Source: a virus
IMG/VR virus record: IMGVR_UViG_3300030329_003470
Span: 1-64,000 of that record
Direction: 5' to 3' (one strand)
DNA: 64,000 bases
The position numbers and the translations under genes were made by a program. This document shows positions 2,150 through 60,550 of this stretch, in pieces (the first letter of the stretch is position 1; each line of letters begins with the position of its first letter). Under the pieces are notes generated by a model. The model was not told the origin of the DNA, searched no databases, and saw nothing but the letters and a program-made list of their open reading frames with translations.

Positions 2150-3209
2150 ACATCTTTCTCTTTAAATCTATTTTTAGTTTACTACTTTCAGTTGTTTTTA
2201 ATATTGATTGTATAGTAAACAGTCTACCGTATTTTAACACAGCATCCGCGACATCTTCAACCTTATTATCCCATTCTGGAAAAGCAACAGACCAACCAAA
2301 CTCCATTGCTTGATCTACTAATTTTTCACCTGGTTTATCTCTGTCCGGCACTACAATTACCTTTCTATTAAGTCCATCAATTAACTCTCGCTGTATATCA
2401 TTTACCTCTGAACCCAACACACTCACTCCAGAAACGGTAATTGCATCAAATGGTCCTTCAGTCACAATAACAAATTTTCTTGTCCAATCTTGTGCGTCCA
2501 TATTAAAAACGTAACCAGGTTGCACATCAGTATAGTATTTTATTCCGCTGTCATTATTAAAAGAATGTTCTTGCAATCTTCTTCCTGTATATCCAACTAT
2601 TTCGCCTTTCCAAAAGAAAGGAATAATAACTCTATTGTGCATATCAAAAAAAGGATCTGATGAATACATAAAGTCATACCAGTCAGCACCAATGCCTCTG
2701 TCTTCTAAATAAGTTAATAAATGATTTATTTTTTCTTTTTGTAAATTAGTTAATTGTCTTTTATTAACATATCTTTCTCCATCCCAAACTTTTTTATCAG
2801 GAAATCTTTCTAGCCACCATTCTAACTTACGTGAATTAATTGGCAATTTTGTTTTGTTAAAACCTATAAATTTTTTCTTTTGAAATGTAGTACCACCTGA
2901 TTCTTCAAGACGTATTGCTTCTATGGCTAACTTTTGAATTGTATCACTTGGTATGCCAATGTAACTCATAAAAGTTCTCATACGTTGAGTTAAACGTCTG
3001 CCAACTATATAACTTGCCTTGTATCCACAGTTAAAACAATGATAAGATATTGTGCCGTCAGCACTATTCATTATACCACCACGTTTCTTTTTGTCTTGAG
3101 TCTCTCCGTTATGAATGCAACAAGGTGCATTAAAAGAAATCCACCCAGATGGTGTTTTCTTTTTGTTCGCAGGTATGGACGTCAGAATTGTATTCTGGAT
3201 CAGGTTCAT
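2142..3209 (-). CDS. gp61: DNA primase (zinc-binding domain plus TOPRIM)
   Basis: N-terminal CC.H...HCFNCG zinc motif, IIPF...G.IVGYTGR, EGPFD and PDRD TOPRIM motifs; adjacent to helicase. Confidence 0.9.
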   Translation of the reverse strand: MNLIQNTILTSIPANKKKTPSGWISFNAPCCIHNGETQDKKKRGGIMNSADGTISYHCFNCGYKASYIVGRRLTQRMRTFMSYIGIPSDTIQKLAIEAIRLEESGGTTFQKKKFIGFNKTKLPINSRKLEWWLERFPDKKVWDGERYVNKRQLTNLQKEKINHLLTYLEDRGIGADWYDFMYSSDPFFDMHNRVIIPFFWKGEIVGYTGRRLQEHSFNNDSGIKYYTDVQPGYVFNMDAQDWTRKFVIVTEGPFDAITVSGVSVLGSEVNDIQRELIDGLNRKVIVVPDRDKPGEKLVDQAMEFGWSVAFPEWDNKVEDVADAVLKYGRLFTIQSILKTTESSKLKIDLKRKMYG

Positions 3210-3219
3210 AATTTATATT

Positions 3220-4026
3220 TTACTGTCTATAAAGGATTTTGTCAATCTTACCAGTGTTATCAGTTGCATTATCCCAACTAATTCTTATATAATGGTAAAC
3301 ACCGGTAAAGTTATAATAGTAAACTTGGCTTGTAGATATAATATACGATACAGTACTTGATGCTTCACCATCTAAGGTAATATCAAAATAATCTGCATCA
3401 GCAGGACTTGAAGCCATTGTGCCTTGCACTTTAAAATCTCCTGCAAAATCTTGAGTGTATACAGCAATCGTGTGTAATGCTTTGTTATTGTTAGTACCTG
3501 GTTTAGCATTAATTGAACCAGATGTTTTTGCTAATGGTCCACCAGTACCTGTAAATTGTGTAACTGAGGTACTTGCATTAAACTGTGGATAAGCACCATC
3601 TAGCACTTCAATAGTACCAGCACTGACATAACTTGTATCTGCATAAGTTACCACAGTACTACCATCTGTAAGAACTTCTTGTATAGAATACTCATAAAAT
3701 TTTGCATCTAAAGGTTGTAAATCGCCCTCTGTGATTTCTACACTAGCAGTTCCTTTGCTGTCTATAGTTGATCCGTCATCTAGTATTTTTAAAGTTCTTG
3801 TAACTACTGCTTTTTTGCTCTCAGTATCTACAATATTGAACGTATAAGTCTTACCAACTATGTCCTGTTTCTTTTGATCCTCGTTTTTAAAGGTAAACGT
3901 AATTGGGTTATACACACCTCTATACACCTGTAGACGTCTATCGTACACTTTTGAGTTCCTTCCATGATAACCATTTTGGTAAACGATTACCGAGTTTGTG
4001 AGTAAATACCTTTGTATTGTTTGCAT
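3220..4026 (-). CDS. Probable virion structural protein (BppU-N-like first half, beta-rich second half)
   Basis: Thr/Gly/Ser-rich; YRGVYNPITFTFKNEDQK pattern; TAAATA 6 nt upstream of ATG. Confidence 0.45.
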   Translation of the reverse strand: MQTIQRYLLTNSVIVYQNGYHGRNSKVYDRRLQVYRGVYNPITFTFKNEDQKKQDIVGKTYTFNIVDTESKKAVVTRTLKILDDGSTIDSKGTASVEITEGDLQPLDAKFYEYSIQEVLTDGSTVVTYADTSYVSAGTIEVLDGAYPQFNASTSVTQFTGTGGPLAKTSGSINAKPGTNNNKALHTIAVYTQDFAGDFKVQGTMASSPADADYFDITLDGEASSTVSYIISTSQVYYYNFTGVYHYIRISWDNATDNTGKIDKILYRQ

Positions 4027-57813: not shown

Positions 57814-57831
57814 TTGCTACTATTTATAAAG

Positions 57832-57880: not shown

Positions 57881-58300
57881 CTAGATTACGTCTAGTGTAC
57901 CAGTTCCTGATGCACCTACGCCTTCGTCAGTTGCTTCAGTTCCTAACGTGAACGTTACTTGTCCAGTTGTTGAACCATTGCCGTGACGTACAGTTCTGTT
58001 GTGAAATCTCTCAACATATGAATCAGTTGAGTCACTCAATACACATCTAACGCACATTTCACCTGCTGATAATGAGCCTGGTGCTACTGCCATAAGTGTG
58101 TATACTGCTGTAGACGAGTCATTCATTTGTTGGATCTTAAATCTTTTAGATCCTCTTTGCGAAACGATAAATGAATTATCATTTTGCTGTAATGAACCAC
58201 CTGAAGGGTAATAAGCCGTTACCGCAAGTCTACCTGCTGTACCGTCTCCACCGCTGTCTGTTACTGCTGACATAAGAGTCTTTTTGATAGGTCTTCCCAT
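57881..58300 (-). CDS. Probable virion structural protein (MGRPIKK...)
   Basis: AAGGAG SD 7 nt before ATG 58300; track start 58369 (TTG) lies inside the structured leader. Confidence 0.65.
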   Translation of the reverse strand: MGRPIKKTLMSAVTDSGGDGTAGRLAVTAYYPSGGSLQQNDNSFIVSQRGSKRFKIQQMNDSSTAVYTLMAVAPGSLSAGEMCVRCVLSDSTDSYVERFHNRTVRHGNGSTTGQVTFTLGTEATDEGVGASGTGTLDVI

Positions 58301-58307
58301 TTTTTTT

Positions 58308-58395
58308 CTCCTTACATGGAGCCAAATGCAAGTTCTACTTGCTACGCGGTTTAATCCGCATAAGTCCAACTACTTTGTGTTGTTGGCTCAATTGA
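58308..58395 (-). ncRNA. Structured cis-regulatory 5' UTR (four-way junction, candidate riboswitch-like switch)
   Basis: P1 GAGCCAA/TTGGCTC enclosing three hairpins CAAC-8-GTTG, ATGCGG-6-CCGCGT, GCAAGT-3-ACTTGC, between ATAAATA (58409-03) and the SD. Confidence 0.7.
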
Positions 58396-58437
58396 CTGCT
58401 TGTATTTATCGAATTTTGGTAAAGATAAAACACTCAT

Positions 58438-58487
58438 AAAAAAAGAGTGGTGCTTACAATCCGAAGTTATGTTTCACACCACTCTTT
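58438..58487 (-). terminator. Probable terminator with 11-bp stem and large loop
   Basis: AAAGAGTGGTG/CACCACTCTTT followed by T7 on minus strand. Confidence 0.65.
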
Positions 58488-59611: not shown

Positions 59612-60550
59612 TTATATTTTTTTGATTTTATCTAAAATGTCGTTACCAAAGAAGTCTTTGTATTTGTCATACAATGGTGACCATAAAGTTTTTAACTTGC
59701 TAATTTCTTCTTCTGGCCATGTAATAACTTCTTCAATACCTAATTTTTCTTGTTTAGATTCACTAGTCTTGATTTCTTCTGCGTCAGCAACTGATTGTGC
59801 TCTTTCTTTTCTTGCCGCTAAAAACCCAGCCTGTGTAAAATGTGTTTGATCTTCTGCACTCAACGAACTCCAGAAACTGTCATTCAATAAAATTGAAGTT
59901 ACATACATCGAATGTTTAGTATCTGCAACATATTTTTGTGATCTGTGTGCATCAGCATGATATCTAGGGTAAGTTGTTTGTGTAACATTAACTTTGTCCC
60001 AGTCTGTTTTTGAATCAGTTAAACGATCTACTTTTTTTGCACCTACCATGTCAATCATGTCAGCGTGTACAGGATTTCTCCATCTAGAATATGTTTTGCC
60101 AGCAAAATCTTCTATTGATCTTATAGGAGTGTTTGATGCTGTGCATCTGTATCCGCCTGAATATGTAAATGATAATCCACGTACCTGTGTCTTTTCATAT
60201 AGATGTGCAAAAAGTGATTTGCCAATTTCTCCTTCAAAAACTCTTGATGCATGATCGTGATCTTTGAATAGATAAGGCATTGATAAAGCATAAAAATCTG
60301 TAGCGTCATAATCGCCTAGTATATCAGAAAACAGTTGGCTACATTGTACTCTACCTTCTTTCAATTCTAAGAAAGGATCACAAATTAAACCGTCAAGATA
60401 CTTGTTTTGGTAGTCTGTAAGTGTAAGAATCTCTATCTCATACTTGTTATTTGTAAGTGTATCTAGATGTTTCTGAAAATCTTCAGCAGTTCTAATGAAA
60501 AGTTCTGCTGGTTCATGAAACAATAACCATTTAATTTTTTGTCTTGCCAT
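59612..60550 (-). CDS. dctP: TRAP transporter substrate-binding protein DctP-like, no signal peptide
   Basis: D...LSMPYLFKDHDHA..V.EGEIG..L, GL...YSGGYR, PIRSIEDF.G, T.H......ILLN..FW.SLS.EDQ motifs. Confidence 0.8.
   Translation of the reverse strand: MARQKIKWLLFHEPAELFIRTAEDFQKHLDTLTNNKYEIEILTLTDYQNKYLDGLICDPFLELKEGRVQCSQLFSDILGDYDATDFYALSMPYLFKDHDHASRVFEGEIGKSLFAHLYEKTQVRGLSFTYSGGYRCTASNTPIRSIEDFAGKTYSRWRNPVHADMIDMVGAKKVDRLTDSKTDWDKVNVTQTTYPRYHADAHRSQKYVADTKHSMYVTSILLNDSFWSSLSAEDQTHFTQAGFLAARKERAQSVADAEEIKTSESKQEKLGIEEVITWPEEEISKLKTLWSPLYDKYKDFFGNDILDKIKKI

Follow-up and report, generated by a model that had tools for sequence, protein, structure and literature searches.

The freshwater-2 motif (Rfam RF02980, type Cis-reg) reportedly came out of a comparative screen of 224 motifs by Weinberg et al. 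in 2017. Its consensus consists of three hairpins followed by a Shine–Dalgarno (SD) sequence and a start codon, and has no outer stem. T4-type translational operators, such as the gene 32 leader pseudoknot, the gp43 operator hairpin and the RegA sites, are familiar cases of phage messages that carry structured RNA at their 5' end, beside the ribosome-binding site. Stem-loops at the very 5' end of bacterial mRNAs, of which the ompA leader is an example, protect those messages and need no conserved sequence, and translational riboswitches are built on an anti-SD/anti-anti-SD layout.

We analysed a stretch of 64,000 nucleotides (referred to here as the window) from an uncultured virus (IMG/VR record IMGVR_UViG_3300030329_003470, 196,581 bases in all). 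A preliminary description of this DNA had proposed that the 5' leader of a late gene on the minus strand contains a riboswitch-like translational switch, in which a four-way junction leaves the SD sequence free (ON) and a mutually exclusive fold hides it (OFF).

The leader in the window is a freshwater-2 RNA

An Rfam scan of the whole window returned a single match, to RF02980, which spans the full model (positions 1–84 of 84) and scores 72.4 bits against a gathering cut-off of 49.9 (E = 4e-9). The element therefore belongs to freshwater-2, and the suggestion that it represents no known class fails on precisely the result, a strong Rfam match, that the preliminary description had named as removing its novelty. 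The copy is the only one in the 196,581-base record, and 15 of 16 relatives tested also exceed the RF02980 cut-off. At a permissive threshold the other Rfam families yielded just a RAGATH-22 row at chance level (17 bits versus 120). A literature search found no paper with freshwater-2 named in its text, and the main text of PMC5737381 does not name it.

The window copy has the same three hairpins as the family model, with the same invariant second hairpin (P2) and the same loop on the third (P3); like other members it comes from an aquatic metagenome and lies directly before the SD sequence and start codon of a phage gene. It differs in that it and its sub-family add an outer stem and an SD hairpin, neither of which is present in the model, and in having an A/U-rich rather than a C-rich P2 loop and a fifth base pair in P3. 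The minus-strand orientation proposed initially is correct, since the opposite strand would have an A·C mismatch in place of the U·G wobble pair of P2, which is invariant in all 96 aligned copies.

A predicted one-gene late message

On the minus strand the locus comprises, in order, a terminator, an ATAAATA box, the folded leader, the SD sequence, seven A residues, an ATG, a 139-codon open reading frame, a second terminator and the next late promoter box (Table 1). The box, the four-way fold, AGGAG, the run of seven A and the ATG are thus all found on that strand as first described.

Table 1. Positions of features at the freshwater-2 locus, listed in the 5' to 3' direction of the minus strand and numbered from the first base of the window.
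Feature	Positions	Strand	Remarks
Intrinsic terminator of the upstream gene	58438..58486	-	11-bp stem, then U run; -21.7 kcal/mol, z = -4.2 (by folding)
T4-type late promoter box ATAAATA	58403..58409	-	TAAATA 12-51 nt before P2 in 116 of 120 family copies (among the matches listed)
Leader	58301..58397	-	~97 nt; whole 5' leader of the late mRNA from the predicted +1
Predicted transcript 5' end	58392..58397	-	+1 = 58397, sixth base after the box (inferred start site); can pair with 58320..58325
Four-way fold	58319..58389	-	71 nt; closing stem 58383..58389 with 58319..58325, then three hairpins
Closing-stem 5' strand of the preliminary description	58383..58389	-	shares bases with the 5' side of the extended P1
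P1 hairpin, extended form	58363..58388	-	sequence varies across the family; absent in some copies
RF02980 match	58298..58384	-	
P2 hairpin	58343..58362	-	7 bp, invariant U·G wobble, 6-nt A/U-rich loop
P3 hairpin	58328..58342	-	conserved UAGAAC loop of the family; covariation
Tail	58319..58325	-	serves either closing stem as its 3' strand; shares its last bases with the anti-SD CUCC (58318..58321)
SD hairpin	58308..58321	-	CUCC, 6-nt loop, GGAG of the SD sequence; -6.3 kcal/mol for the isolated tail
SD sequence AGGAG	58308..58312	-	
Start codon ATG	58298..58300	-	preceded by seven A
P0001 coding sequence	57881..58300	-	139 aa, starts MGRPIKK; two small SH3-like beta barrels predicted
Intrinsic terminator 3' of the P0001 gene	57828..57858	-	8-bp G/C stem and U run; -20 kcal/mol, z = -4.6
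Next late promoter box	57821..57828	-	directly adjoins the preceding terminator

The late promoter consensus of phage T4 is well known. ATAAATA is depleted in the 64-kb window (17 occurrences, versus 34 expected), 15 of the 17 are on the minus strand, and most of them lie just 5' of the starts of open reading frames; these properties, together with the T4 consensus, lead us to read it as a T4-type late promoter. A TATAAATA-like box is found about 6 nt before the predicted start of transcription and precedes late (virion) genes, and the gene for the major head protein (phrog_138, E = 2e-101) is located about 3 kb upstream of the element. Three of the four listed family copies that have no TAAATA before P2 are cut by the end of a contig. 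We also observed, inside the same block of virion genes, a gene (59612–60550, minus strand) for a 312-residue protein that has a solute-binding domain of the DctP type (PF03480, E = 4e-29); it lies about 0.8 kb downstream from the gene for the major head protein.

Both flanking terminators were revealed by folding, and a consensus terminator scan detected neither of them. The upstream terminator would isolate the late unit from read-through, and since promoter, leader and gene all lie between the two, they are predicted to form a self-contained late transcription unit of about 565 nt. By this reading, in which both transcript ends are predicted, the P0001 gene is a stand-alone, monocistronic late unit.

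P0001 has 468 metagenomic relatives, all of them unnamed. Neither Pfam nor PHROGs contains a family for it. In searches of cultured phages, neither P0001 nor two longer members of its family had a protein match, and the locus had no DNA match. Its structure was modelled with confidence (pLDDT 83.8, pTM 0.80) as two small beta barrels. The proteins that the model resembles, all uncharacterised, come from uncultured phages, Agrobacterium phage Atu_ph07 and a Yersinia phage; the genome of Atu_ph07 has no freshwater-2 copy (best score 21.7 bits). A Foldseek search of the PDB gave no match at E <= 0.001. Exhaustive structural alignment indicated a weak likeness to SH3, Tudor and KOW barrels (Z up to 4.4), and in the ESM Atlas a viral cluster labelled E1_FCCH has a TM score of 0.52 to the model. 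This weak SH3-like resemblance is no evidence of RNA binding or of any other function. The late promoter and the place of the gene in the virion module suggest that P0001 is a virion-associated protein.

Constant and variable parts of the leader

Relatives were collected in two ways. A pattern composed of conserved P2 and P3 bases matched at least 120 viral contigs, and a covariance model aligned 96 copies, in most of which the five outer P2 pairs and the P3 loop sequence TAGAAC are fixed by the retrieval pattern. Independently, 59 distinct leaders of the window's sub-family were gathered through their downstream proteins (including a profile search with a narrow alignment), a form of retrieval that is blind to the RNA.

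Covariation, which had been proposed at the outset as a check, strongly supports the three inner hairpins. Across the 96 aligned copies, 89.7% of cells are paired (64.3% after shuffling) and the covariation score is 0.546, as compared to 0.122 for shuffled alignments, with none of 500 shuffles scoring as high; sliding the partners relative to each other abolishes the signal. Thirteen of the 19 modelled pairs change on both sides, among them all seven in P1, and no modelled pair of P1 or P3 fails to covary. Six of the seven P2 pairs, the U·G included, show no change in any of the 96 copies; the exception is the sixth pair, which covaries (GC in 57, UA in 21 and AU in 18). Four pairs of P3 covary heavily, and a fifth forms in just 14 of the 96, the window's sub-family included. 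Because the bases of P2 and of the P3 loop are partly dictated by the search pattern, the case for their invariance rests properly on the leaders retrieved through protein, in which the invariant P2 pairs (again with the U·G) are likewise unchanged. The P3 loop is UAGAAC in copies retrieved by pattern and either UAGAAC or GAGAAC in those retrieved through protein.

Other parts of the leader are less constant. P1 is absent in six copies (L013, L015, L021, L026, L092 and L095), and the linker from P3 to the SD sequence nearly vanishes in some others, so that the constant part of the family is P2–P3. In most copies the start of P1 is no more than a few bases from +1, and the 5' end has between zero and five unpaired bases. 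A strong SD sequence and a start codon follow all but one (a chance match) of the approximately 120 pattern matches listed, and the SD sequence and its spacer are nearly invariant across the listed family copies. The products encoded downstream of the listed matches range from 116 to 512 residues, and 116 of the 119 that are readable begin with MGRP (two of the remainder with MAR and one with MGN).

A search of 185,579 prokaryote genomes gave 52 pattern matches, one of them a true copy, and freshwater-2 thus appears to be essentially confined to phages. That copy (L181, 5994–6076) is located on a 148-kb contig binned with a Haliscomenobacter metagenome-assembled genome; the contig is probably itself from a phage and may hint at a host. 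One viral contig (L009) carries two copies about 1.7 kb apart (1424–1515 and 3143–3232), indicating that the module of leader plus gene can be duplicated. In two leaders (L082 and L091) the linker pairs with the region of the start codon and not with the SD sequence, which represents a third, independent manner of covering the ribosome site. Eight leaders that have no tail (L008, L014, L035, L039, L056, L072, L101 and L118) begin with GUUC, which is complementary to the conserved GAAC in the P3 loop, a possible docking site for this 5' end.

In the window itself, the 113-nt stretch singled out by the preliminary description is considerably more stable than shuffled versions of it (z = -4.79; none of 200 as stable). 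Its four-way part, described as GC-rich, is moderately so: 43.7% G+C versus 34.1% for the window, corresponding to the 92nd percentile of 71-nt windows. The four-way junction is present with the closing stem proposed for it, as is the mutually exclusive arrangement in which the first hairpin is extended and CUCC pairs with GGAG to cover the SD sequence. When computed for the predicted transcript, the two proposed folds are nearly isoenergetic (-28.0 kcal/mol for the ON fold and -28.1 for the OFF fold), and the minimum-energy structure (-29.2 kcal/mol) is a slight extension of the OFF fold. Opening the SD sequence within the whole leader costs 2.4 kcal/mol, and if it is held open in the model, the RNA refolds to exactly the proposed junction. 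Inspection of the transcript also identified a second 5' partner for the tail that had been overlooked. This partner consists of the first six transcribed bases; the fold in which they pair with the tail has a total of -26.2 kcal/mol, and it is this 5'-terminal partner that is conserved by the closest relatives.

In 54 of the 59 sub-family leaders the predicted +1 is exactly the first base of AGUCAA, AGUUCAA or AGUACAA, and all but three of the 59 fall into one of three classes that are distinguished by their tails. In class I (35 leaders, tail GGACUCC), the first seven bases of the transcript are predicted to pair with the tail and the bases that follow it to form the SD hairpin simultaneously (mean probability that the SD sequence is unpaired, 0.17). 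In class II (10 leaders, tail AGGCUCUG), the tail is predicted to pair with CAGAGC beside P1 and to cover the anti-SD (mean probability 0.89). In class III (11 leaders including the window, tail UGGCUCC), the SD hairpin dominates and both closing stems are possible although poorly populated in the model (mean probability 0.28). In class II the isolated SD hairpin has an energy of about -3 kcal/mol, as against -5.3 to -6.3 kcal/mol in the other two classes, and the cost of opening the SD sequence ranges from 0.1 to 3.4 kcal/mol across whole sub-family leaders. The P3 loop of several class I leaders (L124, L125, L128 and L129 among them) reads GGAGAAC, which resembles the real SD sequence and spacer found a few dozen bases downstream.

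A comparison of window-type leaders of class III with those of the L124 type in class I revealed a paired insertion or deletion, of one U in the 5' strand and one A in the tail, by which the 5'-terminal stem is kept between the two classes. The sub-family is thus genuinely characterised by some form of closing stem. The identity of that stem is less constant. The closing strand of the preliminary description is found in a P1 allele shared by the window and four other class III leaders (L192, L193, L204 and L205). It is absent from a sister allele (L123, L198, L203, L206 and L259) in which P1 is wholly different and fully compensated, and in which P2, P3 and the tail are identical to the window type, apart from a few base changes in L203. 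The window's P1 allele is also carried by two leaders (L243 and L274) whose 5' end differs and which lack a tail, and it is therefore a self-contained hairpin. This recurrence suggests that P1 hairpins are swapped as modules, and the match of P1 to the tail may follow simply from the likeness of the tail to the 3' strand of P1. By comparison of these sequences, the outer stem and the SD hairpin are lineage-specific additions, and P1 is likewise accessory, differing even between sister alleles.

Possible roles of the leader

The best overall explanation of these observations, and in our judgement a probable one even with its inferred role included, is that, in an uncultured aquatic T4-like phage, the freshwater-2 copy makes up the whole 5' leader of a short monocistronic late mRNA, which starts from a T4-type late promoter and is flanked by two terminators. 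That the element would act in cis, as a leader on its own message, is very probable on the sequence comparisons described above.

We propose more tentatively, and with the outcome in some doubt, that the P2–P3 core may be an operator that is bound by a factor and thereby sets translation or stability of the message. The invariant core would then be the working part of the leader, most likely as a docking site for a factor acting in trans. A phage late protein would be the likeliest such factor, and it could possibly be P0001 itself, which is an obvious candidate because the RNA and the gene always travel together. Binding would set either the output of P0001 or the lifetime of its message, and the outer stem would tuck in the 5' end and, together with the weak SD hairpin, tune both ribosome access and exposure of that end. 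Such a leader would resemble the operators of T4-type phages in its position at the 5' end of a phage message beside the ribosome site and in the suspected logic, by which a protein holds down translation of one particular message; it differs from them in having no likeness to them in sequence or structure. A search of the 196,581-base record for the RegA and RegB families gave no match, in a record that is 55% complete and with a method that also gave none in control genomes.

Much of the same evidence would be explained by a purely constitutive role, which we consider possible, if rather doubtful. In that case no trans-acting factor would be involved: a fold beginning at +1 would shield the 5' end from decay, and a strong SD sequence with an A-rich spacer would support bulk production of a late virion protein. 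Pairing that starts at or beside +1, as in the ompA leader, is indeed found here, with the 5' end of class I paired from +1 or +2 and P1 starting close to +1 in most family copies; the GUUC starts of many tail-less lineages, with their complementarity to the P3 loop, and the near-invariance of the SD sequence and spacer are also in keeping with such a role. The difference from the known stabilisers lies in the core, which is invariant in the leaders described here. For stability alone, neither invariant bases within a helix nor a fixed U·G wobble nor a loop of fixed sequence would be needed. Copies differ in how many 5' bases are unpaired (zero to five), and in the model the 5'-terminal stem of the window is at low occupancy.

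The switch originally proposed would have the junction hold the anti-SD in the ON state and some trigger (a metabolite, a protein or temperature) favour extension of P1, releasing CUCC to hide the SD sequence. Part of this description stands: the element is predicted to act in cis as a structured leader, with a T4-type late promoter on one side and the ribosome site of the late gene on the other, and in the window a closing stem and the SD hairpin do compete for a single run of pyrimidines, in the manner of translational riboswitches. The near-equal energies of the two folds, the return of the model to the junction when the SD sequence is held open, the retention of the closing strand in the other leaders with the window-type allele and the use by class II of an analogous stem beside P1 to cover the anti-SD all favour it. 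What does not survive comparison is a conserved platform. The RF02980 consensus has no outer stem, and the linker from P3 to the SD sequence is nearly gone in some family copies; the sister allele has no closing strand, and no ON/OFF platform is therefore conserved. The SD sequence is predicted to be closed in the 35 leaders of class I (where stem and SD hairpin form together rather than in alternation), open in the 10 of class II and mostly closed in the 11 of class III, and such differences in logic among near relatives count against conservation of a two-state switch. In a set of 107 leaders of the family, exposure of the SD sequence spans 0.10 (the window, which is the lowest) to more than 0.7. 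The same P1 stands alone in the two tail-less leaders, so that its match to the tail can follow from the likeness already noted, and the small cost of opening the SD sequence in the window also counts against the proposal, which we regard as unlikely.

A metabolite riboswitch was considered separately and set aside: no conserved expression platform was found, with both the state of the SD sequence and the partner of the stem differing between classes. Such a riboswitch appears unlikely because the conserved core consists of two plain hairpins, because that platform is missing and because the downstream gene has no metabolic link; the leader has no conserved multi-helix ligand pocket, and the energy gap between its folds is small. 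It is conceivable, though improbable, that this lineage has gained a genuine platform in which the tail has three alternative partners (the SD sequence, the strand adjacent to P1 and the transcript's own 5' end), and that a phage late protein (perhaps the MGRP protein) or another cue acting at P2–P3 would shift the balance and so time translation of a virion protein. If true, this would be the first freshwater-2 copy with a readable switch.

An RNA–RNA clamp between the C-rich P2 loop and the sequence AUGGG in the start region is very unlikely. CCC or CCA is present in 102 of 107 family P2 loops, 86% of the family loops can form at least four contiguous pairs with the start region, and one leader whose second codon specifies alanine (L057) has a matching change in the loop. 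Yet shuffled loops of the same composition do nearly as well (3.52 versus 3.92 bp), just 7% of the 59 sub-family loops reach 4 bp, and the P2 loop of the window is A/U-rich, has no C run and so cannot form the clamp at all. Finally, the cloverleaf-like outline and 7-bp closing stem might recall a tRNA-like or other stand-alone RNA gene, or the fold might be due to chance, and either is almost certainly wrong: ARAGORN found no tRNA or tmRNA gene in the window, the element always abuts an SD sequence and start codon, and the covariation rules out a chance fold.

The freshwater-2 family is thus already known, and the window copy is an ordinary member of it. Its comparison with relatives nevertheless sharpens the picture of the family: freshwater-2 starts at the predicted +1 of a T4-type late transcript and heads a one-gene message, and its working part would be the invariant P2–P3 pair, with the outer stem, the SD hairpin and P1 as interchangeable accessories. 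For the phage represented by the window, the minus-strand copies of ATAAATA provide a usable map of late promoters. The motif is common in aquatic giant phages, and P2–P3 together with the MGRP protein would offer a clear and inexpensive experimental entry point to it.
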